The notes: generated by a model from the sequence alone, not told the origin. A stretch of DNA of 64,000 nt from Parcubacteria group bacterium Gr01-1014_8 (GCA_007376385.1 VMGC01000005.1:96001-160000), one strand, 5' to 3'; numbered from the stretch's first letter, positions 1 to 62,537 are shown. Program-made: numbers and translations.

Positions 1-15
1 CCGGCAAATACAAAG

Positions 16-37
16 CCACCGGACCCCAGTCCGGTGG
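16..37. terminator. GC-rich hairpin (CCACCGGAC-ccca-GTCCGGTGG) at the window edge; possible bidirectional terminator
   Basis: 9-bp perfect stem read directly. The minus-strand side is U-rich (UUUGUAUUUG). It lies downstream of the small minus-strand ORF 66..254. Confidence 0.35.
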
Positions 38-65
38 TCGTTTACTAAAAAGAAAATAATCGGCG

Positions 66-1427: not shown

Positions 1428-2471
1428 ATGCTTGTTGATGATGTCACCATAAAACTCTCTGGGGGCAACGGCGGTCCGGGCATCGTCGGCTTCAATCGCA
1501 CTAAAGGAAACACGGGTCCGACAGGCGGTAACGGGGGCCCTGGCGGCGATGTCATTCTTGAAGGCATTTCGGATATCAGCGCGCTTCTTCAATTCAGATT
1601 TAACAAAGATTTCAAAGGCGAAGATGGCAAGCAAGGCACAACGCGTCTGCGCGACGGCACGCGCGGTGAGGATTTGATATTGAAAATTCCGACGGGAACG
1701 GTCATCACGAATCTCGACACAGGCTGGACGCATGAACTGACGAAGGAGGGCGAGCACGTTATGGTCGCAAAAGGCGGCTATCGCGGCCGTGGAAATTTCC
1801 ACTTCCGCGCATCGACGAATACGACGCCGATGGAAGCCGAGACGGGCGAACTCGGAGAGAGTTTTACATTCCGCCTTGAACTCAAGATGATCGCCGACGT
1901 GGGTCTTATCGGTATTCCGAACGCAGGCAAATCGTCGCTTCTCAACGAACTGACCGGCGCGCACTCGAAGATAGGGAATTACGCGTTCACGACACTCGAG
2001 CCGCACCTCGGCGCATACTACGGGCTCATTCTTGCAGACGTGCCGGGTCTTATCGAAGGTTCGTCGGAAGGCAGGGGCTTGGGAGACAGATTCTTGCGCC
2101 ACATCGAACGCACGCGCGTCCTCTTTCATTTAGTGTCTGCGGAATCAGACGATGTCGTACGCGATTACAAAATAGTGCGGCAGGAATTGCAGGCCTATAA
2201 TCCTGCGCTCACAAAAAAAGAGGAGTATGTGTTTTTGACGAAGGTTGACCTCGTGGATGGTAAGGACGCGGAAGCAAAATTGAGGTTATTGAAGAAGATG
2301 AACAAGAATGCGCTCGCGCTCTCGGTCATCGAAGATAAGCGGATGAGGGCGGTGAAAGACATTCTCAACACGTTCCTAAAAGAAAAGAAGGTGGCTCCCC
2401 CTGGGACCACACTTGGATTTTCTGAAGCGGGAGTACCCGCTAAGAAAATCTCGGCGGTCGATGACAAATGA
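1428..2471 (+). CDS. obg: GTPase Obg/CgtA
   Basis: N-terminal Gly-rich Obg fold (GGNGGPGIVGF...GGNGGPGGDVIL). G domain with GIPNAGKSSL (G1) and DVPGLIEGS (G3). The C-terminal ~18 codons are encoded by repeat family B (see findings). Confidence 0.92.
   Translation: MLVDDVTIKLSGGNGGPGIVGFNRTKGNTGPTGGNGGPGGDVILEGISDISALLQFRFNKDFKGEDGKQGTTRLRDGTRGEDLILKIPTGTVITNLDTGWTHELTKEGEHVMVAKGGYRGRGNFHFRASTNTTPMEAETGELGESFTFRLELKMIADVGLIGIPNAGKSSLLNELTGAHSKIGNYAFTTLEPHLGAYYGLILADVPGLIEGSSEGRGLGDRFLRHIERTRVLFHLVSAESDDVVRDYKIVRQELQAYNPALTKKEEYVFLTKVDLVDGKDAEAKLRLLKKMNKNALALSVIEDKRMRAVKDILNTFLKEKKVAPPGTTLGFSEAGVPAKKISAVDDK
2404..2457 (+). repeat. Family B hairpin repeat, copy B1, embedded in the 3-prime end of the obg coding sequence
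   Basis: GGACCACACTTGGATTTTCTGAAGCGGGAGTACCCGCTAAGAAAATCTCGGCGG. Near-identical copies sit at 20463..20518 (same orientation) and 20936..20988 (reverse complement). Internal dyad GCGGG-agta-CCCGC. Confidence 0.8.
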
Positions 2472-3159
2472 ACCGACAGTGATTTTTGAGAACGACGATT
2501 TTCTCGTCATCAATAAACCGGCCGGGCTCATCGTGCACTCGGACGGAAGGACGATAGAGCCGTCGCTCGCCGACTGGCTCATCGCGCGCTCCCCCGCGCT
2601 ACAAGAGGTCGGCGAGCCATGGGTGTCGCCGCAAGGAGAAAAAATTGCGTGCCCTGGTCTTGTGCATCGTTTGGATAGAACAACATCGGGTGTGATGGTT
2701 GTGGCGAAAACACAGGCGATGTGGAAATACCTGCGCGCAGAATTTAAAGAGCGGCGTGTCGAAAAGAAATATCACGCATTTGTCTACAGTCATGTGGAGG
2801 GGAGTTCTGGTCGGATTGTTTCTGAAATCATGAGGTCGTCTACGCCTCCTAAAAAATGGTATGCACGGCCATGCGACGAAAGCCACAAGCGAGCAGCCAT
2901 AACGGATTGGACGCTTTTGAAAAAGCTCGAAGATAACGGCGAGCTCATTTCGTATCTCGAAGTTCAGCCTCGTACCGGCCGCACGCATCAGATACGCGTG
3001 CATCTTGCATCTATCGGGTATCCTATAGTCGCGGACCATCTGTACTCCGACAAGAAGCCACTTTTAGGATTCACGCGCCCGGCGCTTCATGCACACAGTA
3101 TTTCATTCATGCTGCCGTCAGTAGAAAACCGGGAATTTATTTGCGAGCGTTGCGAGTGA
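2461..3159 (+). CDS. RluA-family 23S rRNA/tRNA pseudouridine synthase
   Basis: Catalytic motif HRLDRTTSGVMVVAKT and RTGRTHQIRVHLA. The chosen start, MTNEPTVIFENDDFLVINKPAGL, overlaps the obg stop by 11 nt. The last 6 codons (ICERCE*) are encoded by repeat C1. Confidence 0.88.
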   Translation: MTNEPTVIFENDDFLVINKPAGLIVHSDGRTIEPSLADWLIARSPALQEVGEPWVSPQGEKIACPGLVHRLDRTTSGVMVVAKTQAMWKYLRAEFKERRVEKKYHAFVYSHVEGSSGRIVSEIMRSSTPPKKWYARPCDESHKRAAITDWTLLKKLEDNGELISYLEVQPRTGRTHQIRVHLASIGYPIVADHLYSDKKPLLGFTRPALHAHSISFMLPSVENREFICERCE

Positions 3160-3220
3160 AATGCAAAAGAGCACTTTTGTATTTCCGAGTCGAGGAGCAA
3201 ACACAGGTTCAATACCTCGG
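3137..3220 (+). repeat. Family C dyad-symmetric repeat, copy C1
   Basis: TTTGCGAGCGTTGCGAGTGAAATGCAAAAG-agca-CTTTTGTATTTCCGAGTCGAGGAGC...GGTTCAATACCTCGG. Homologous to 27115..27203 and, in reverse complement, to 61726..61813. Confidence 0.75.
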
Positions 3221-3275
3221 AGCTTGCTCCGAAGAACCTTTATAGCGCCACCACCGAAGGATTTTCGCTGATGTT

Positions 3276-3811: not shown

Positions 3812-4264
3812 ATGATGGATCCGGATATCTCACCACAGGCAGAACCGGAAGCGACACCCGAAATCTCTGCAGAGGTCGCACCTGCGCCGGGTTCTGAACA
3901 AGTAATTCAAGAGACACAGTCTGCCCAGTCAGGGCCGGCGGAACCGGCTCCGCCGCCGCCGGCATCTGCATCTCCCGCACCCGAGACTCCTCTATCCGCC
4001 TCACTTCCGCTCATGCTCGGGCCTGCTCTCGCTATCAAAAACCTCGCACAGCAGGCGCTCGAAAAATTGCAATTCCGCAAAAAGGGCCGCCTCGACAAAA
4101 TCATCGAGCTTGCGAGAAGGAAGGGGAGCATCGTCAATAATGATGTGGAGATGCTCCTCAAAGTCTCGGACGCGACAGCCAGCCGCTATCTTGCAGAGCT
4201 CGTCAAACAGGGCACATTACGGCAAAAGGGTGTCCGCGCAGGCACGACCTACGAACCAGCGTGA
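3812..4264 (+). CDS. hypothetical protein with a Pro/Ala/Glu-rich N-terminus and a C-terminal winged-helix-like DNA-binding segment
   Basis: C-terminus ...VSDATASRYLAELVKQGTLRQKG resembles an HTH recognition helix. The N-terminus is low-complexity (PAPGSEQ...APPPPASASPAPETP). Confidence 0.5.
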   Translation: MMDPDISPQAEPEATPEISAEVAPAPGSEQVIQETQSAQSGPAEPAPPPPASASPAPETPLSASLPLMLGPALAIKNLAQQALEKLQFRKKGRLDKIIELARRKGSIVNNDVEMLLKVSDATASRYLAELVKQGTLRQKGVRAGTTYEPA

Positions 4265-9049: not shown

Positions 9050-10861
9050 TTGTGGGATGATGCGCTGATGGATTTTGGTCGCAAGTCAATAGGGGACATG
9101 CTAAACGGGATGGCTCGGTACCGAGTCCCAAAATACCAGCGCTCCTTTACCTGGGGTACAAACCAAGTCTCAGATTTTTGGAGAGACCTTTGTGAAGCAG
9201 ATGAGAGAGAAGGATTCTTTCTCGGGACCATGATATTGCATAAGGATAGAGAGGGGGTAGAGGTGGAAAATCTCAAGAATATTGTTGATGGACAACAGAG
9301 AATGACCGCCGCAAGTTTATTATTGCTCGCATGCAGGAATCACTCGTCAAGAAGGAACCGAGACAGGGCTGCTGCACTTGATCAAACTCTGATGTTTCGT
9401 GATATCGCTACTGGAAGAGCGGAAACGCTCAGACTTGAGGTCGCTCCAGACATTCTAGATGCTTTTCGTCACATGGTGACTGCTAGGCAGTGGGATGAAC
9501 AAACTTTTCCAGACGAAGTAGATGGCCGAGTCGCCAGACGAATAAAGTCTATTTATAAGTATTTCAAGCAGCAGGTAGACGAACTATCAGATGCAGAGCT
9601 CTCGTCCTTACTTAATAAATTGTTGAATTCATACTTTCTTGTGATAGAAATTGAAGATATCACACAGGCTTTTGAGCTTTTTGAACGAACAAATGCGCGA
9701 GGAACTCCGCTGAATGCAGGAGAGTTGCTCAAGAACAGACTGTTTGCAGAGGCGCAGGAGAAAGAAATTGTAGAAGGCGAATGGGAGGAGATTGTTTCTA
9801 ACTCTAATGGGATGCTACTGCGAATGTTGAAGTATTTTGCAGCTCTTAAGCACGGGCAAGAAACGGGTCGGACGGTTTTGTATCGACATCTGCGTGGTCA
9901 AGTTGAATCGGACACACCGAGCCAGTTCATCCACGATTTGAGCGCTTTCTCTTCATATTTTGGAAAGTTCTTGGACAACAAACTTCAAGCCGCACCATTT
10001 ATTGATCGAAATTCTGATAAGTCATTCGAATTTCTCTTCATTGATGAGATTGCTTTTAAAAAGTTTGGTCGCAGCATGAGTGCGATATCTCTTTTTGGTG
10101 TCTACATTGTCCTTCCCGTTGTTTTCGCTGGCCTAAAAGGGCTATCGAAATTGAAAGACAAAAGCGGATTTAGACCCGCGTTGAAAGATTTTCTAAATCT
10201 TCTAGGTACGATGGAGTGTTTCCATTTTATCAATAATCAGATATGTACACGTCCCTCGAATCGTGCCGAGTCACTATATGCAAGTAAAACAAATGTGTTG
10301 GCGACAGCGGAGACATGCGCACAGTTCAGAGAGGTAATAAAGCAGATATCAAAAGGACTCAAGGAGATAAAGGTCGCTAATAAGGAAGAGTTCCTACTTA
10401 ATTTTACTGGACTTTCATATACGAGTCCTGCAAGCGATAAGCCTCTCTTTGCATACGTCTTTGATAGATTTGAATCCTCTCCATTCGCGTCAGCAGCACC
10501 TGTAACCATATTTGATCCGTCAGCTAATTACAGCCTGAACCGCGTATTCGAAGTTGAACACATTACCCCTCGAGCAATGTGGGGCAATTTATATCCGGAA
10601 GATGATTTGGTCAACAATATCGGTAATTTACTCATCCTAACGCAGGAGACTAATAGGCTTGTAGATACCAAACCATTGCCGGATAAGATTCGAATAATGA
10701 AGGAACGAGGCTACGACAATTTAAGTACCGTTCAACAATTTTCTAAAAAGTTCGAGGATAAGGAACTCAAGTGGTTACGTCCGACAGACATAACAGAGCG
10801 ATCTGTCGCAATGGCAGCTCAAGGCTACAGTGATATTTGGGATCCATGGCCGAATGATTGA
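9050..10861 (+). CDS. GmrSD-family type IV (modification-dependent) restriction endonuclease, DUF262 + DUF1524
   Basis: N-terminal DUF262/ParB-like NTPase motifs (KYQRSFTW ... VDGQQRMTA). C-terminal DUF1524 HNH-like motifs (EVEHITPRA ... GNLLILTQETN). The gene looks AT-rich relative to its flanks by eye. Confidence 0.8.
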   Translation: MWDDALMDFGRKSIGDMLNGMARYRVPKYQRSFTWGTNQVSDFWRDLCEADEREGFFLGTMILHKDREGVEVENLKNIVDGQQRMTAASLLLLACRNHSSRRNRDRAAALDQTLMFRDIATGRAETLRLEVAPDILDAFRHMVTARQWDEQTFPDEVDGRVARRIKSIYKYFKQQVDELSDAELSSLLNKLLNSYFLVIEIEDITQAFELFERTNARGTPLNAGELLKNRLFAEAQEKEIVEGEWEEIVSNSNGMLLRMLKYFAALKHGQETGRTVLYRHLRGQVESDTPSQFIHDLSAFSSYFGKFLDNKLQAAPFIDRNSDKSFEFLFIDEIAFKKFGRSMSAISLFGVYIVLPVVFAGLKGLSKLKDKSGFRPALKDFLNLLGTMECFHFINNQICTRPSNRAESLYASKTNVLATAETCAQFREVIKQISKGLKEIKVANKEEFLLNFTGLSYTSPASDKPLFAYVFDRFESSPFASAAPVTIFDPSANYSLNRVFEVEHITPRAMWGNLYPEDDLVNNIGNLLILTQETNRLVDTKPLPDKIRIMKERGYDNLSTVQQFSKKFEDKELKWLRPTDITERSVAMAAQGYSDIWDPWPND

Positions 10862-11321
10862 TGCAGCATTAATCAAACAGAAGACAAGGTACTTACGGGA
10901 CGGCCGGGCCCCGATTCCGAAAAGTGAAAAAATCTCTCGCACGATGAGTGCGATAAGAGCAAAGAACACGAAGCCCGAGTTACTTGTTCGCAAGGTTTTC
11001 CGAAAAGTAGGAATACGCGGATATCGATTGCATTGGAATAAAGTAGCCGGACGACCGGATATTGTGTTCCCTAAGAAAAAAGTCGCTGTGTTTGTTCACG
11101 GCTGTTACTGGCACGGATGTCCACATTGCAAACTTACACTCCCGAAAACGCATCGAGCATTTTGGCGTGCAAAGTTCAAGAGAAACAAGGAAAGAGACGC
11201 TCATAAGACAAAAGACCTGCGGAAATTAGGATGGCGTGTACTTACCGTGTGGGAGCACCAAATAAAGAAAGATGCGGATCAAATCGCTGCACGCGTCGTG
11301 AAGGCTCTTCGTGACGCTTGA
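10854..11321 (+). CDS. vsr: very-short-patch-repair endonuclease Vsr
   Basis: MSAIRAKNTKPELLVRK...GRPDIVFPKKKVAVFVHGCYWHGCPHC matches the Vsr hallmark (FVDGCFWHGH). The start overlaps the GmrSD stop by 8 nt in another frame. The 3-prime end overlaps the convergent MTase gene by 80 nt. Confidence 0.85.
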   Translation: MIDAALIKQKTRYLRDGRAPIPKSEKISRTMSAIRAKNTKPELLVRKVFRKVGIRGYRLHWNKVAGRPDIVFPKKKVAVFVHGCYWHGCPHCKLTLPKTHRAFWRAKFKRNKERDAHKTKDLRKLGWRVLTVWEHQIKKDADQIAARVVKALRDA

Positions 11322-12648
11322 TGCTCTGCAAAAGTGCACGGCCTATTTCTTCAATGATTCCGACGACAAGTGCGTTACCCATGAAGAACGCTCGTTTTAC
11401 GTCGGAAATGTCGTCATATGCGGTATGGCGAGCAGGGAATTGGCATAATAACTCTAACTCTGTTGGGGTAAGTCGGCGGTATTTTCCGGACTTTGTTTTT
11501 ACAACATGCTTGAATCGCGAGGGTGCGGGCCCTCCCTCTCCTGTAATTATCGTGCGGGAAGGTTTATCCAAAGCATCCGGAAAAGTCATTGGACCCTCTG
11601 CGTAGTGATAAGTGAATCCATCTGTCCCATGGCGCTCTTCCTTTTTAGCACCCTTGAGATATTTCCACTCTTTTAGTGAGCCGTTGATAAAATATTCTTC
11701 GGCGACTTTGTGTTCCGGAAGTAGAATATCACCGAGAGTAATGAAAGGGCCACCGTATTTTGGAGTTACGCGAGCGGTTGTGATCCGACCGTCACTCATG
11801 ACCCCAGCATTCGCAAAATCTATATCGTCCGGGAACAATTGTTCAAAGTCTCTCGTTATTCTGACGGGATCATCAGCGACATCGTGTCTCGCGAATCTTG
11901 AAATTTCATCTTCGACTGCGAGTCGTTGCGCGAAAACTCCTTCTTTTGTCAGCCAATTGATCGCGTCAGTCGAACGTAGCGCATTTGCAATACCGGTTCC
12001 ATTCTTGAACGCGAGAATAAAGATCCGGCGCCTGCGCTGTGGTTTTCCGTAATCAGCTGCATTGATAACGCGCCATTCGACGACATATCCGAGGTTTGCG
12101 AGCGAAGCGAGCATGATCGCAAAATCACGACCGCGGGCAGATGCTGGGGACTTTAATAATCGGTCAACGTTCTCTAGGAACACATAGGGAGCAGAGTCCT
12201 TGTGTCCTTTTTCTTGAAGAATGCGATAGATCTGCCACCAGAGAACGCCTTTCTTTCCCTGGAGTCCCGCAGCTTGGCTCAACGTTCGTGCAACCGAATA
12301 ATCCTGACAAGGAAATCCTCCGACAAGAACATGATGGTCCGGGATGTCACCTGTTGCGACGGTCGCGATATCTTGATTACTGTGTCCTTTGCTGCCAAAA
12401 CGTGCCCGGTACACCTCGGATGCGTGCTGGCGTTTCGTTGATGGCTCCCACTGATTACTCCAGATGGTCTCGAATTTCAGACCTGCTCTCGCCGCTTCCT
12501 TTTTTGATGCTTGGTCGAGTCCGAGACGAAATCCTCCCACCCCTGCGAACAATTCAATGACCTTAAGTGGCACCGCTTGTCGATCGTCTTTTTTGAGCGT
12601 ATGTTTGGCTAGTTTCCCCATAGCTAAATCGTACCAAGGAATATCCAT
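11242..12648 (-). CDS. dcm: DNA (cytosine-5)-methyltransferase (Dcm-like, type II m5C MTase)
   Basis: Motif I ELFAGVGGFRLGL, motif IV GGFPCQDYS, motif VI VFLENVDRLL, motif VIII QRRRRIFILAF. The partner of the adjacent vsr. Confidence 0.9.
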   Translation of the reverse strand: MDIPWYDLAMGKLAKHTLKKDDRQAVPLKVIELFAGVGGFRLGLDQASKKEAARAGLKFETIWSNQWEPSTKRQHASEVYRARFGSKGHSNQDIATVATGDIPDHHVLVGGFPCQDYSVARTLSQAAGLQGKKGVLWWQIYRILQEKGHKDSAPYVFLENVDRLLKSPASARGRDFAIMLASLANLGYVVEWRVINAADYGKPQRRRRIFILAFKNGTGIANALRSTDAINWLTKEGVFAQRLAVEDEISRFARHDVADDPVRITRDFEQLFPDDIDFANAGVMSDGRITTARVTPKYGGPFITLGDILLPEHKVAEEYFINGSLKEWKYLKGAKKEERHGTDGFTYHYAEGPMTFPDALDKPSRTIITGEGGPAPSRFKHVVKTKSGKYRRLTPTELELLCQFPARHTAYDDISDVKRAFFMGNALVVGIIEEIGRALLQSIKRHEEPSRRVQRFDPHLSLFGAPTR

Positions 12649-20431: not shown

Positions 20432-20462
20432 CTTTCTTGACCGGCACGTGGCTCGCTTACGC

Positions 20463-20518
20463 GGCCACACTTGGATTTTCTAAAGCCGGCATACGCCCGC
20501 TTTAGAAGATCTCGGCGT
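20463..20518 (+). repeat. Family B hairpin repeat, copy B2 (abuts the csp stop codon)
   Basis: GGCCACACTTGGATTTTCTAAAGCCGGCATACGCCCGCTTTAGAAGATCTCGGCG. Inner dyad TCTAAAGC...GCTTTAGA. Confidence 0.8.
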
Positions 20519-20736
20519 TATGCCATCGGCTGAGCAACTGCTCGGCTGACCTGAGTCGCGTTCGGACCTTTCGGAGAGTCCACGACTTCAAACGTCAATT
20601 TGTCACCTTCTCGAAGCTCGTCGAATGTAACGCCGACAAGCTCTTTGGAGTGGAAGAAGACATCCTTCTCCTGCCCCTCGATCTTGATGAACCCAAATCC
20701 TTTATCAGTGATTCGGGCGATTGTTCCTGTTTGCAT
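20518..20736 (-). CDS. cspA: cold-shock protein (CspA family)
   Basis: MQTGTIARITDKGFGFIKIEGQEKDVFFHSKEL carries the RNP1 (KGFGFI) and RNP2 (VFFHS) motifs. The ORF-track N-terminal extension (MRACFYQFYFHFI) was rejected as non-coding. Confidence 0.9.
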   Translation of the reverse strand: MQTGTIARITDKGFGFIKIEGQEKDVFFHSKELVGVTFDELREGDKLTFEVVDSPKGPNATQVSRAVAQPMA

Positions 20737-20935
20737 AATGAAATGAAAATAGAATTGGTAAAAACATGCTCGCAACGCGCTATAGAGTTTAATCCAAGTG
20801 GTCGCAGGTAAGTATCAAAAGCAGTGTGCTGGGAGTTGTAGGTCGATCCCTCTTCTCTGGATCAGCCCTGAAATTGATGCCCGAAGGGTATCACACGCTT
20901 TCTCGCTTGTCCAGTCCTAAAAGAGGGGTATACTG

Positions 20936-20988
20936 CGCCGAGATTTTCTTAGCGGGTACGCCCGCTTTAGAAAATCCAAGTGTGGTCG
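20936..20988 (-). repeat. Family B hairpin repeat, copy B3 (reverse complement), ~200 nt upstream of the csp start
   Basis: The reverse complement reads CGCGACCACACTTGGATTTTCTAAAGCGGGCGTACCCGCTAAGAAAATCTCGGCG, near-identical to B1. Confidence 0.8.
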
Positions 20989-21010
20989 CGAAGCGAGCCA
21001 CCGCCCTGTT

Positions 21011-22597: not shown

Positions 22598-22637
22598 GCA
22601 TACCTTAGTGGTGCCGACCGGCACCACTAAGGTATGC
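22598..22637. repeat. Family A palindromic element, copy A1
   Basis: GCATACCTTAGTGGTGCCGACCGGCACCACTAAGGTATGC is a perfect 40-nt palindrome. It lies just upstream of the Rpf-like gene. Confidence 0.8.
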
Positions 22638-26421: not shown

Positions 26422-26451
26422 TCAAGAGTCTCTGCATAGAGCTCAAATCCA

Positions 26452-26491
26452 AAATACCATAATGGTGCCGGTCGGCACCATTATGGTATTT
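26452..26491. repeat. Family A palindromic element, copy A2; likely bidirectional terminator after ppsA
   Basis: AAATACCATAATGGTGCCGGTCGGCACCATTATGGTATTT is a perfect 40-nt palindrome, followed by CGTTTTTC. Confidence 0.8.
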
Positions 26492-26512
26492 CGTTTTTCA
26501 TGGTGAGAAGCG

Positions 26513-27114: not shown

Positions 27115-27203
27115 CTTTATTGGCGAGCGTTGCGAGCGAAGCGAAAATGTATTCATTTTCATTTTCGAGCCGAGGAGCCAACATAGGGTCGAATACCCCG
27201 CGG
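27115..27203 (+). repeat. Family C dyad-symmetric repeat, copy C2
   Basis: CTTTATTGGCGAGCGTTGCGAGCGAAGCGAAAATG-tattc-ATTTTCATTTTCGAGCCGAGGAGCCAACATAGGGTCGAATACCCCGCGG. Intergenic, between two minus-strand genes. Confidence 0.8.
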
Positions 27204-27215
27204 TATGAATACCCT

Positions 27216-27581
27216 TTATTTTAAGAGCCTGTCGATAGCATCAATGATGCCTTGTGCTGATTCATCTGATTTCACTACGTAGCCGCGGATACCGAGCGCC
27301 ATTCCTTCCGCGATGTTATCCATTGAAGACACGTTGGAGGTAATGAGTACAGGCGTTTTACCCTCGCCGTATTTTTTGTTCAGTTCCTTCAGGAATTGGA
27401 GGCCGTCCATTCCAGGCATCTTGATATCAAGAAGGATGCCGTCGGGCTGTGATTCGCTCATTTTTTGCAGCCCCTCGCTTCCGTCACTCGCACATACCAC
27501 TTCGTACTCTGCGCTGTCCAGCTCTCCTTTCATGAGACTCTTGAAAGTCTCGTCATCATCGATAATAAGTATTTTCTTCAT
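27216..27581 (-). CDS. single-domain response regulator (CheY-like receiver)
   Basis: ILIIDDDE ... GILLDIKMPGMDG ... receiver fold. 121 aa. No cognate kinase is adjacent. Confidence 0.82.
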   Translation of the reverse strand: MKKILIIDDDETFKSLMKGELDSAEYEVVCASDGSEGLQKMSESQPDGILLDIKMPGMDGLQFLKELNKKYGEGKTPVLITSNVSSMDNIAEGMALGIRGYVVKSDESAQGIIDAIDRLLK

Positions 27582-50475: not shown

Positions 50476-50617
50476 ATGAATAGTATAGACGATGATTCCA
50501 AAATAATCTTACGCACTAGCGTGATGCGATAATCGTACTCCGAACATCACAAAAAGACTGACTGTGTGGGTTGGCGTTGTCGCGCTCATACTGCTGGATC
50601 GTCACTTTATCTTGCGA

Positions 50618-50692
50618 GGATAGCGAGAGAAATGCGAGTGCTTGCACTCGCATTTCCGAGCGACGCAGCAAGCAAAGGTTTGAAACCTTTCA
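50618..50692 (-). repeat. Family C-prime dyad-symmetric repeat, copy 1 (overlaps the stop codon of 50690..51226)
   Basis: CTTGCGAGGATAGCGAGAGAAATGCGAGTGC-ttg-CACTCGCATTTCCGAGCGACGCAGCAAGCAAAGGTTTGAAACCTTTCA. Perfect 13-bp inner hairpin. Confidence 0.8.
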
Positions 50693-51226
50693 TAGTTCCA
50701 CCAAAACGCTCGTTTTTATGCTGCCGTCTTTTGAAGACTCGTCATAGCGCTCGATGCGGAATCCACCTTTCTGGATAAATGCGGCGAATCTGGTTCCAGT
50801 GAGTGCATCGTTGCAGTCCACTTTGCCGAGCATTATCTTGTGATCCTCGATCTCATTCATTTCTTTGCCGGTGCAGCCCATCGCGGTACCAAGATCGTAG
50901 CGCTTCGTTGTGCCGTCCAAAGTGGACACGTCGGCCGCAATCGTCTGTTCGTTGATGCGGTAATCGTCCTCACTCTTGATCTGGGGATTCGCCTTCTCGA
51001 TGCTCCAGGTTACTTTCATGACTGTCGTTGCGTCAAGATTCCACAGTGGGAGGAGTGAACCGCCGGTGAGGAAGAAGCCGAGGTCTCCGACTATGCGGAT
51101 TGGAGGCGGTGCATCCTCCGCCGGTTGGACAGCGTTGTAATGGATGACCGAGCCAATGTAGCGGACGCCAAGAAAGAGCCCGACGATAATAATAACGATT
51201 GAAAACATTGTTAGATATCGATTCAT
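50690..51226 (-). CDS. membrane-anchored hypothetical protein
   Basis: Start trimmed to MNRYLTMFSIVIIIVGLFLGV, because the ORF-track N-terminal extension is just the translated C-prime repeat. The soluble domain contains two Cys. Confidence 0.5.
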   Translation of the reverse strand: MNRYLTMFSIVIIIVGLFLGVRYIGSVIHYNAVQPAEDAPPPIRIVGDLGFFLTGGSLLPLWNLDATTVMKVTWSIEKANPQIKSEDDYRINEQTIAADVSTLDGTTKRYDLGTAMGCTGKEMNEIEDHKIMLGKVDCNDALTGTRFAAFIQKGGFRIERYDESSKDGSIKTSVLVEL

Positions 51227-51237
51227 ATACTTATTTT

Positions 51238-51316
51238 TTGTCTTGCGAGGATAGCGAGTGAAGCGAAAGCACGCTTTCGCTTTCGAGCGTCGCAGCAAGT
51301 AAAGGTTTACCTTTCA
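51238..51316 (-). repeat. Family C-prime dyad-symmetric repeat, copy 2 (overlaps the stop codon of the XRE HTH gene)
   Basis: CTTGCGAGGATAGCGAGTGAAGCGAAAGC-acg-CTTTCGCTTTCGAGCGTCGCAGCAAGTAAAGGTTTACCTTTCA. Confidence 0.8.
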
Positions 51317-51507
51317 TATTCTAATAATTCTCCCGGCTGACAATCCAGCGCTTTGCAGATCGCCTCGAGGGTTGAAAACCGGATTGCCCGTGCTTTTCCG
51401 TTTTTTAATATAGAAATATTGGCCATCGTGATGCCTACCTTTTCCGTAAGCTCGGTAACGCTCATCTTCCGCTTGGCGAGCATGACATCTAAATTGACGA
51501 TTATCAT
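51307..51507 (-). CDS. XRE-family (Cro/C1-type, YozG-like) HTH transcriptional regulator
   Basis: 66 aa. MSVTELTEKVGITMANISILKNGKARAIRFSTLEAICKALDCQPGELLEY is a canonical HTH_XRE. Confidence 0.8.
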   Translation of the reverse strand: MIIVNLDVMLAKRKMSVTELTEKVGITMANISILKNGKARAIRFSTLEAICKALDCQPGELLEYER

Positions 51508-59516: not shown

Positions 59517-59852
59517 ATGACGAGTGAGATAGCGAACTATCTCGACAGCAGGCTTAGTTCGCTGGAGAAGCAGATGGGCTCAGATACGAGTGGCGCGCGG
59601 TGTGAAGTAGAAATATCTCGCGCTGCAGGGAAGAAGCACAGCAGCGATTATATGTGGACTGCCGAAGTGAGAATAATCATTCTTGGTAAAAAAGCAGCGT
59701 ACGCGAAGAATTCCGCAGCAAGCGTGAATGCGGCCATCGATGATGTTAAGGAAGAGATAGAGCGGCAGCTGCGAAAAAGCAAAGGAAAGAGCACGAAAGA
59801 GTCGAGGCGAAAAGGAAAAAGATTCAAGGACGCAATTCGGGGTGGCAAATAA
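59517..59852 (+). CDS. hpf: ribosome hibernation-promoting factor (HPF/RaiA family, short form)
   Basis: ...YLDSRLSSLEKQMGSDTSGARCEVEISRAAG...MWTAEVRIIILGKKAAYAKNSAASVNAAIDDVKEEIERQLRKSKGK follows the HPF beta-alpha-beta-beta-beta-alpha pattern (cf. E. coli ...[37 protein letters not shown]). Start trimmed. Confidence 0.6.
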   Translation: MTSEIANYLDSRLSSLEKQMGSDTSGARCEVEISRAAGKKHSSDYMWTAEVRIIILGKKAAYAKNSAASVNAAIDDVKEEIERQLRKSKGKSTKESRRKGKRFKDAIRGGK

Positions 59853-59862
59853 TCCGTATACC

Positions 59863-59900
59863 GTATACCTTAATGGTGCCGGTCGGCACCCTTAAGGTAC
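59863..59900. repeat. Family A palindromic element, copy A3 (imperfect), after hpf
   Basis: GTATACCTTAATGGTGCCGGTCGGCACCCTTAAGGTAC. Confidence 0.75.
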
Positions 59901-60037
59901 GCGCGTTCCATTGATGCTTTGATGCTATCGATAGGGAAAGAGTTTCTCATTTTAATTGGCAGCAATGCCTGAGAAGCTCCCCTTACCGGAAATCGGCTCC
60001 GGTATGCGATTGACTATACATCCGTGTTAGAAAAGAA

Positions 60038-61512: not shown

Positions 61513-61725
61513 ACCGTGAGGCTATATTTATTCGAAGGCCGGTCTGGAGCGCGCGAAGCAATGCTGTGCGCTTGCACTCCGACCGGCCTTGCGCTCGCAA
61601 ACACCCTCCCAGGGTTTGCGCGCGATCCACTATGAGAAAGTATATAGCCAATAAAGGGTATACATACCGGCGGGGCAAACCCCGCCATGAGGAACGCGCT
61701 TCGCGCATCCTCCCTAGCCGGCAAG

Positions 61726-61813
61726 CCGCGGGGTATTCGACCCTATGTTGGTTCCTCGGCTCGGAAATGAACATGAGTACACGTTCATTTCACTCGCAAC
61801 GCTCGCCAATAAA
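61726..61813 (-). repeat. Family C dyad-symmetric repeat, copy C3 (reverse complement)
   Basis: The reverse complement reads TTTATTGGCGAGCGTTGCGAGTGAAATGAAC-gtgtactcat-GTTCATTTCCGAGCCGAGGAACCAACATAGGGTCGAATACCCCGCGG. It lies in the large intergenic region upstream of def. Confidence 0.8.
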
Positions 61814-61977: not shown

Positions 61978-62253
61978 ATGAAGCACATTGGGGCACATTT
62001 AAAGACGCGCAAGCATATTCTTCGCGAGACGGAGCGGGGGGAATTGATGAAATTCTTTTGCGAGCGCCTGAATTCGACGCGCCGGTTTGACGGTCTGCCT
62101 CGTATAACGATGGCCCGCATGGGGAAAATACTTGAAGGCATTCCGACAAAGGACCTCTATTATCTAAAGCGGGTTTGTAATGATGCTGGCAATTTCTCCA
62201 AAAAATTCTGGTGGGAGGTAAATCCAAAAAAGCATCCTGACGCTAAGATCTGA
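61978..62253 (+). CDS. hypothetical basic protein
   Basis: 91-aa ORF followed by palindrome A4. No family recognised. Confidence 0.4.
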   Translation: MKHIGAHLKTRKHILRETERGELMKFFCERLNSTRRFDGLPRITMARMGKILEGIPTKDLYYLKRVCNDAGNFSKKFWWEVNPKKHPDAKI

Positions 62254-62262
62254 CCTCGATGC

Positions 62263-62306
62263 CTAAATACCTTAGTAGTGCCGGTCGGCACTACTAAGGT
62301 ATTTAG
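62263..62306. repeat. Family A palindromic element, copy A4
   Basis: CTAAATACCTTAGTAGTGCCGGTCGGCACTACTAAGGTATTTAG is a perfect 44-nt palindrome. Confidence 0.8.
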
Positions 62307-62537
62307 TGATGCGGGGAGGGGGATGCACGAAAGTAGCCGGGAGCAAAGAGCAGGGAGGAAAAGCGCTCTTCACGTCACCGGCTACCAGCCTGCGCAGCCT
62401 TCTTAGGGCGCGCAGTAACGTTGCTCGAACCTGGAGCTCAAGCAACGCGTTATCCATAGGCACAATACGTTTGTGTCCAAAGCGAGTCAACCATTTGCGG
62501 GAATGCCTTTCAAAGATACAATGCCACTCCAACCTCT

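Follow-up and report, generated by a model that had tools for sequence, protein, structure and literature searches.

Two short repeats, C'1 and C'2, on either side of a single minus-strand gene in Parcubacteria group bacterium Gr01-1014_8 arose by independent insertion at neighbouring gene junctions in a single operon. By analogy with characterised transposons, we consider them probably to be copies of a small (about 75-160 nucleotides, nt), protein-less, non-autonomous element of the IS200/IS605 type, similar to the palindrome-associated transposable elements (PATEs) and presumably moved by a Y1 transposase. They were studied in a stretch of 64,000 nt (GCA_007376385.1, VMGC01000005.1:96001-160000; hereafter the window). 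The element family is real and previously undescribed, and nothing specific was found in the literature on miniature inverted-repeat transposable elements (MITEs) or IS200 elements of the Candidate Phyla Radiation (CPR). CPR (Patescibacteria) genomes are small and usually thought to be poor in mobile DNA. The copies reported here represent a structurally constrained mini-transposon family common to several phylum-level CPR lineages. Its insertions alter gene ends: C-termini are replaced or lengthened, stop codons displaced and start codons rebuilt. The features of the locus are as follows.

50606..50610, plus strand: TTTAT target motif (TAM-like), directly 5' of C'1; on the minus strand, the displaced original TAA of the gene 50690..51226
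50611-50693, plus strand: copy C'1, 83 nt, covariance-model score 90.8 bits
50611-50615 with 50668-50672: outer stem of C'1
50616-50628 and 50657-50667: internal loop of C'1
50629-50656: variable hairpin of C'1
50674-50690: second hairpin of C'1, AAAGGTTT-G-AAACCTTT
50689-50693: terminal TTCAT of C'1, source of the TGA of the gene 50690..51226
50690..51226, minus strand: resident gene of 178 amino acids (aa), membrane-anchored, no Pfam family; outside the element
51237..51241, plus strand: TTTGT target motif, directly 5' of C'2
51242-51317, plus strand: copy C'2, 76 nt, covariance-model score 74.5 bits
51242-51246 with 51295-51299: outer stem of C'2
51247-51259: left loop of C'2
51260-51284: hairpin of C'2
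51285-51294: right loop of C'2
51301-51314: second hairpin of C'2, AAAGG-TTTA-CCTTT, shorter than that of C'1
51313-51317: terminal TTCAT of C'2
51307..51507, minus strand: XRE/HTH_26 regulator gene

Evidence for insertion

Homologues of the 178-aa gene were traced to contigs L018, L019 and L020 (orthologues 78-87% identical), and the borders of C'1 and C'2 were set by comparison with these empty sites. In L018, where the homologue is 78% identical, the DUF2975, XRE and 178-aa genes stand in the same order with neither element; the XRE gene overlaps the next gene, and the gene after the 178-aa homologue begins 2 nt past its stop codon. In L019 and L020, no element follows the stop codon; TAAAGTGGCGAT and TAAAGGGCGAT directly follow it, and TAAAGTGaCGAT downstream of C'1 matches the post-stop sequence of both contigs. 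The initial annotation of this DNA had described two elements that bracket the gene and overlap consecutive stop codons, had offered a mobile element as one explanation, and had proposed a comparison of orthologous loci. Both copies are present as described, with borders a few bases off from those given by the empty sites, and the comparison bears out the mobile element: both copies are absent from the relatives with gene order kept, and exact excision restores ancestral gene ends.

Removal of C'2 (51242-51317) gives GAA T|AC AAA AAA TAA, with an XRE protein that ends in ..EYKK*, 4 nt before the next ATG; the corresponding C-terminus in L019 is ..ELKK*. In the present sequence, the last two codons of the XRE gene are replaced by C'2 (KK* to ER*). 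The present TAA (51307-51309) sits within C'2, as had been noted. The distance of C'2 from the ATG at 51226 is 15 nt, counted from its CTTGC left end at 51242, which is near the 12 nt first given on slightly different borders. Removal of C'1 (50611-50693) gives GTG GAA CT|A TAA AGTGACGAT and brings back the original TAA of the 178-aa gene, whose present TGA is made of the final bases of C'1 (TCA at 50690-50692), in agreement with the overlap first described. An example of a computed empty junction is ..CACTTTAT|AGTTCCAC...

The bracketed gene is not cargo: it is ancestral at the locus, and its order after DUF2975 and XRE is kept in the element-free L018 and L019. This bears on an integron-like gene cassette, that is, a bracketed gene with an attC-like recombination site. 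Such a cassette would account for one gene between two elements that overlap gene ends, and attC sites are likewise imperfect palindromes with a variable terminal stem-loop after single genes. Against it stand the same gene order in relatives without the elements, the lack of R/L core boxes (no RYYYAAC or GTTRRRY core sites were seen in the sequence) and of an array, the single, scattered positions of the other copies in the window, and the lack of an integrase among the window open reading frames (ORFs) scanned with Pfam. The cassette, which we regard as scarcely credible, was rejected on synteny and the absent core sites.

Repeat finding ties C'1 and C'2 to three longer copies in the window, of a form termed C.

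3141..3243, plus strand: copy C1, 103 nt, long C form; after TTTAT (3136-3140), in the 3' end of an RluA-family pseudouridine synthase gene
27121..27219, plus strand: copy C2, 99 nt; between response-regulator and DUF1003 genes, both on the minus strand
61651..61808, minus strand: copy C3, 158 nt; upstream of def-fmt, with about 75 nt extra in the loop of the second hairpin

With C1 excised, the RluA protein ends in ..EFIAPPPKDFR* and its gene has a TGATG overlap with the next; the C-terminal motif ..APLPxDF.. is found at that position in 30/30 homologues. The deposited RluA-family protein P0100 (gene 2413..3159, "ribosomal large subunit pseudouridine synthase D") ends in ..EFICERCE* without APxPxDF, and its C-terminal ..ICERCE is element-derived, an annotation consequence of insertion C1. 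Since C1 destroys a conserved motif, it points to a selfish insertion. In the Kaiserbacteria locus L005, read from sequence only, the element lies within an ATGA start/stop overlap (..TTCTAT|G AAA AAA..); its 75 nt add 25 codons to the upstream ORF, and the AT at its end restores the start codon of the downstream gene as ATG. When C'1, C'2, C1 and the L005 copy are excised exactly, ancestral-type gene ends result in each case, without target bases being gained or lost.

The locus is identical in three assemblies of the window strain, so the polymorphism is one between related species and not one inside the sampled population. Independent Logan assemblies of that strain are interrupted within C3 (start of L022, window position ~61783) and at C1 (end of L024, window position ~3136), as assemblies are at repeats. 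The element thus fragments short-read assemblies and also leads to faulty annotation, the RluA protein cut to ..ICERCE being an example.

Structure and distribution of the element

C'1 has the layout CTTGCGAGGATAGCGAG..CGAGCGACGCAGCAAG-CA-AAAGGTTTGAAACCTTT-CAT, and C'2 the same except for a different central hairpin and a shorter second hairpin. The identical micro-hairpin at first reported for each copy is therefore not shared, C'2 having AAAGG-TTTA-CCTTT in place of AAAGGTTT-G-AAACCTTT. The 17-mer CTTGCGAGGATAGCGAG has two exact occurrences in the window, only in C'1 and C'2 (0.18 expected by chance), and the right end ..CCTTTCAT is reached at 50693 and at 51317. The two copies are 81% identical to each other and thus no more alike than either is to the copies of Saccharibacteria and Kaiserbacteria (76-86%).

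A structural alignment of 14 distinct copies defines two hairpins, one at each end. The 5' module, SL1, consists of a 5-bp outer helix, an internal loop and an upper hairpin. In the internal loop, 13 nt (GAG-NNNN-GCGAG-N) face 11 nt (CGAG-NNNN-G-N-A); four positions per strand (NNNN) are variable, as subtype-specific tetramers, and the rest are invariant or near-invariant. The upper hairpin has a constant start (GAA../..TTC) and is otherwise of free sequence. The second hairpin, SL2, lies 3' of SL1 and has the form AGG(G/T)T..A(C/A)CCT, minimal in C' and with 10-90 nt of extra loop in C; the last bases of the element, beyond SL2, are TTTCAT in C' and TTTAT in C. Across the 14 copies, helix positions pair in 93.7% of cells, as against 31-46% with partners slid by 1-3 columns, and 12/18 pairs have double-sided changes; the observed covariation score of SL1 was reached by 0/500 shuffles. 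Folded as single-stranded DNA, C'1 and C'2 have z-scores of -3.5 to -4 on the plus strand and -2.2 to -3.8 on the minus strand.

The degenerate core pattern GCGAG-N4-GCGAG-N-GAA..TTT(N)CGAG-N4-G-N-A-R-C has exactly five sites in the window (C'1, C'2, C1, C2 and C3) and none in 100 shuffles. In public collections, it was found after dereplication at nine further distinct loci of other Patescibacteria.

Kaiserbacteria: L005, L006
Paceibacterota: L003
Saccharibacteria: L002, L004
Unclassified Patescibacteria: L001
Metagenome contigs of unknown taxon: L008, L012, L014

Three other pattern matches (L007, L011, L015) were discarded as false on inspection, and the viral contigs scanned with the pattern gave 0 matches. 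A covariance model (R1) applied to the window, the loci, 20 kb extensions of the window and about 70 kb around transposase homologues detected no extra and no autonomous copies, and no gene lies between the ends of any SL1 copy examined. A conserved peptide encoded by the element was ruled out, as length variation shifts the frame between copies.

A third SL1 subtype is formed by L001 (1581-1672), L008 (~3856-3957) and L014 (~200-293). It always lies 70-90 nt downstream of an intact transfer RNA (tRNA) gene on the same strand (Tyr-GTA, Ser-GCT and Ser-GGA), embedded in the T-loop of a partial duplicate of the 3' end of that tRNA (xGGTTCR|element|ATCC..CCA), and a short T-arm piece matches the local tRNA sequence. 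After the duplicate comes a second copy of the tRNA's downstream hairpin; the repetition is a perfect direct repeat of 105 nt in L001 and has diverged in L008 and L014. The subtype may be either a lineage that homes to T-loops, with survival restricted to duplicated tRNA 3' ends, or a mini integrative element with a tRNA end.

Ends, target motifs and gene borders

The element has no terminal inverted repeats; its ends, CTTGCGAGG.. and ..CCTTTCAT, are not complementary. The left flank of the 11 C and C' copies is TTTAT (six copies), TCTAT (three), TTTGT (one) or CCTAC (one), and the presumed cut site is 18 nt away, on the 5' side, from the foot of the upper hairpin of SL1. At the right end, TTCAT is present in all five C' copies with an identified right end (thus excluding L004) and TTTAT in 4/5 C copies, the right end of the fifth, L006, not being identified. 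The C' junctions have TTTAT or TTTGT on the left, TTCAT on the right and no duplicated bases; C copies carry the same pentamer at both junctions, and the shared TTTAT makes duplication-free insertion ambiguous there.

The initial annotation had proposed an element that targets stop codons. Copies do lie on stop codons, but the stop is not the target per se: insertion is 3' of a T-rich pentamer (TTTAT, TCTAT or TTTGT). The reverse complement of the target is ATAAA, ATAGA or ACAAA, which tends to contain or adjoin an opposite-strand TAA or TAG, or an ATGA overlap. Selection would remove insertions elsewhere in genes, so that those at gene borders are left and copies accumulate on stops and start/stop overlaps. 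C2 has TTTAT at both junctions, with the TAA of the response-regulator gene inside that TTTAT; in C1 and C3, the incoming frame on the same strand meets a stop in the loop, within GCGAG-TGA. The element end ATGAAAGG (..TTTCAT, reverse complement ATGAAA) provides a TGA at C'1 and an ATG at L005.

A terminator/insulator cassette, also raised initially, is not supported. Neither strand has a T/U tract after the hairpins (the minus strand has ACAAAAAAUAAG or AUAAAGUGA after SL1), and a scan for intrinsic terminators and promoters gave nothing at either copy. Orientation relative to the operon is mixed, being antisense at C'1, C'2, C2 and L002 and sense at C1, L005 and L012; L003 and L006 lie between convergent genes, and L004 and C3 between divergent genes. 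An effect on mRNA stability may exist. More generally, each copy might be a cis-acting RNA, as a terminator/insulator or an independent small RNA, with its repetition being incidental. This would suit the covarying helices and their good folding, the loop that is near-invariant outside four positions per strand, and the third subtype, which runs in the same direction as the tRNA genes and has ..CCA at its end, with a terminator beyond. Opposed to it are the hairpins without a following U tract, the mixed orientation, the lack of space for a promoter of its own, and an insertion polymorphism and coding damage that fit a parasite. There is also no Rfam family: at the gathering score, Rfam 15 has only a tRNA-Asn in the window, and at E <= 10 the element region gives only noise (mir-1473, 19 bits; tfoR, 12.7 bits). 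A cis-acting RNA is thus a very improbable explanation. As for other candidates, a self-cleaving ribozyme is without an Rfam ribozyme match, and an intron was ruled out by the mixed orientation relative to host genes.

Co-resident transposase and proposed mechanism

Extension of the contig to the left (L023) places an intact 151-aa IS200/IS605 Y1 transposase gene at L023 8092-8547, which ends 26 nt before window position 1 and is about 3.7 kb from C1 on the same contig. It belongs to an autonomous insertion sequence (IS), whose borders were fixed by comparing four independent insertions of close homologues.

L023 7990-8618 and window 1-45: autonomous IS200/IS605-family IS, just left of the window
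Window 1..45, plus strand: right end of this IS, ..CCACCGGACCCCAGTCCGGTGGTCGTTTAC|

The transposase scores 118.6 bits with Pfam PF01797 and 127 bits with NCBIfam NF033573 (cut-off 55), and has the HVH motif and the catalytic Tyr; with the family associated with repetitive extragenic palindromes (REPs), NF047646, it scores 35.4 bits, below the cut-off of 80. It has more than 1000 metagenomic homologues at 77-92% identity, mostly on contigs under 3 kb; the three with a named source are from Patescibacteria, Doudnabacteria and a mine-drainage metagenome. In each of two contig sets examined, the transposase is at one conserved locus. The IS has a left flank ..CTAT| or ..GTAC|, followed by AAACC and a CCGGCGTTAGCCGG-type hairpin, and a right end ..CGTTTAC|; judged by these sequences, it is of the same target-motif class as C and C', with different hairpins. 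The window itself has no transposase or recombinase among about 60 ORFs scanned with Pfam, and tblastn of IS200, IS608 and RAYT (REP-associated Y1 transposase) protein queries gave no match in the window and the loci. The link of this Y1 transposase to the C and C' elements is circumstantial. In a separate observation, two genomes (L028 and L029) agree fully in the IS and in its right flank (79-aa gene, DUF1003, Mur ligase, rpoB/C). Their left flanks, upstream of the tnpA homologue, are unrelated, L028 and L029 differing in that a pilin operon is present in one of them and a DUF5128 gene in the second, which suggests a rearrangement at the IS.

As far as the junction sequences tell, the insertion signature is that of IS200/IS605 'peel-and-paste' transposition. 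By analogy, we infer a single-strand mechanism and movement by a Y1 enzyme, whether the co-resident one or another. In analogy with IS608, the first cut would be made in one strand, on the 3' side of an external T-rich pentamer (TTTAT, TCTAT or TTTGT), and a second cut would follow the element's terminal pentamer (TTCAT in C', TTTAT in C). The released single strand, probably circular with the junction ..CCTTTCAT|CTTGCGAGG.., would be pasted 3' of another such pentamer in single-stranded DNA, with target bases neither gained nor lost. A Y1 HUH transposase acting in trans would hold both hairpins, the large SL1 at the 5' end and the small SL2 at the 3' end, and after insertion at a gene border the ATGAAA end of the element would give a replacement TGA or ATG.

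Several points weigh against a PATE-like element of IS200/IS605 type. No SL1 copy is present in about 70 kb around four transposase homologues, and no copy was found adjoining a transposase gene. SL1 differs from SL2, and neither looks like the CCGGCGTAGCCGG-type hairpins of the co-resident IS, which moreover ends in CGTTTAC; the elements are therefore not simple deletion derivatives of that IS. In C', the terminal pentamer overlaps the foot of SL2, whereas in IS608 it is about 10 nt beyond the foot. No consistent rule for guide-to-cleavage-site pairing could be derived from the subtype loop tetramers: GATAG in the C' loop is complementary to CTAT|C, and C copies are without an equivalent pairing. 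Strand signals are equally indistinct, with 10 G.T as against 5 A.C wobble pairs, and with 4/5 window copies on the G-rich strand and a mixed GC skew at the other short loci; L012 agrees with the dnaA/yidC geometry for a lagging-strand template. Finally, a large near-invariant loop between helices of free sequence would be less typical of the IS200/IS605 ends known so far than of an RNA bound by protein.

Some of these points would be explained by a DNA element that is moved by another enzyme reading the SL1 loop, such as an unrecognised recombinase or a different HUH enzyme, with the IS200/IS605-like features being convergent. The hairpins unlike those of the co-resident IS, the lack of an autonomous copy in the DNA scanned with model R1, the unusual 13 x 11 nt loop of SL1 with only four variable positions per strand, and the third subtype, whose place in duplicated tRNA T-loops recalls integrase-type att sites, all speak for such an enzyme. 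However, no recombinase or other transposase is encoded among the window ORFs scanned, a Y1 transposase is present on the contig, and a pentamer outside the left end, a similar pentamer at the right end and the absence of duplication are what a Y1 enzyme produces. We regard another enzyme as an unlikely alternative, yet the least unlikely of those considered. Somewhat more doubtful is the idea that SL1-SL2 might form a distinct, ancient, CPR-wide mobile module, in which the loop would be a protein-binding or guide-bearing scaffold (either omega-RNA-like, serving a TnpB/IscB-type nuclease in trans, or recognised by a single-strand recombinase not yet described) and of which one lineage, found only in duplicated tRNA 3' ends, would home to tRNA T-loops.

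A further possibility is that the copies are REP-like domesticated repeats, spread by a single-copy RAYT-type Y1 enzyme and kept for stabilising or punctuating operon mRNA. Dispersed intergenic copies with hairpins at gene ends would be expected in that case, as would the one conserved locus of the transposase in each of the two contig sets and its more than 1000 homologues. The enzyme, however, scores as IS200 (127 bits, cut-off 55) and not as REP-associated (35 bits, cut-off 80), and is flanked by its own IS ends and not by SL1 copies. The units are single, 75-160 nt long and two-hairpinned, with neither a GTAG-type REP head nor inverted REP pairs as in bacterial interspersed mosaic elements (BIMEs), and C1 destroys a conserved protein motif. 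Domestication of this kind is improbable. The elements and the highly conserved IS200-type transposase of the contig might serve as a test system for Y1 trans-mobilisation in organisms that cannot be cultured alone.

Comparison with known systems

REP units are palindromes of 20-40 nt with a conserved GTAG-type head, often in inverted pairs (BIMEs). REPs and BIMEs with RAYT resemble the elements reported here in being dispersed extragenic palindromes at gene ends, with a single-copy Y1 HUH enzyme as the presumed agent of their movement in trans; the present elements differ in the absence of the GTAG head and of paired inverted REPs, in their longer two-hairpin unit and in an enzyme below the RAYT cut-off. 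Classical MITEs (Correia, RUP, Stowaway-like) are also small, non-coding and located at gene borders, where they may add codons or start and stop signals, but their terminal inverted repeats and DDE-transposase target duplications are both absent here.

Transposons of the IS200/IS605 family are cleaved 3' of a short motif outside their left end, and a related motif forms the last bases of their right end; they have subterminal hairpins at both ends, and the excised single-strand circle inserts without gain or loss of target (PMC3201880). PATEs are found beside ISGst1-5 in Geobacillus stearothermophilus and in Haloquadratum (PMC10055086, PMC3119063), and TTTAT and TTCAT are the transposon-adjacent motifs of the IS605-family members ISGst2 and ISGst5, both of which have protein-less PATE derivatives (PMC10055086). 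The elements share with PATEs their short length, the lack of proteins, inverted repeats and target duplication, the subterminal hairpins, a Y1 transposase in the genome, and insertion on the 3' side of a T-rich pentamer, a similar one of which closes the element. They differ from PATEs in that the two end hairpins resemble neither one another nor the ends of the co-resident IS, the motif at the right end directly adjoins its hairpin, no parent IS was found, and SL1 has a large loop, invariant bar four positions per strand and conserved across phylum-level CPR lineages. In IS608 of Helicobacter pylori, the cut site lies 19 nt 5' of the hairpin foot (PMC3201880). As in IS608, the left cleavage site would lie outside the element, about 18-19 nt 5' of a hairpin foot, and the right one within it, with donor and target rejoined precisely. 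IS608 differs in its tetranucleotides TTAC and TCAA, its two near-identical hairpins and its tnpA and tnpB genes, and guide-to-cleavage pairing has been demonstrated for it.

Other features of the window

A second family of hairpin repeats (CCACACTTGGATTTTCTrAAGCsGG..CCCGCTwAGAAAATCTCGGCG) has three copies in the window.

2405-2456, plus strand: in the overlap of the obg 3' end and the RluA 5' end
20462-20516, plus strand: on one side of a cold-shock-protein-like ORF (~20536-20737, minus strand)
20938-20992, minus strand: on the other side of the same ORF

The last two are inverted relative to each other, which makes this another case of repeats that flank one gene. Near-perfect intergenic palindromes of about 40 nt (ATACCTTAGTGGTGCCGryCGGCACCACTAAGGTAT) are present at 22598-22637, 26445-26498, 59850-59905 and 62252-62307; they look like REP-like sequences or bidirectional terminators. 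The window also contains a defence-type cluster of lower G + C content (0.45) at 9050-12648, which comprises a GmrSD-family restriction endonuclease gene (9050..10861), a Vsr-like gene (called in L023) and, on the opposite strand, a C-5 cytosine DNA methylase gene (11242..12648).

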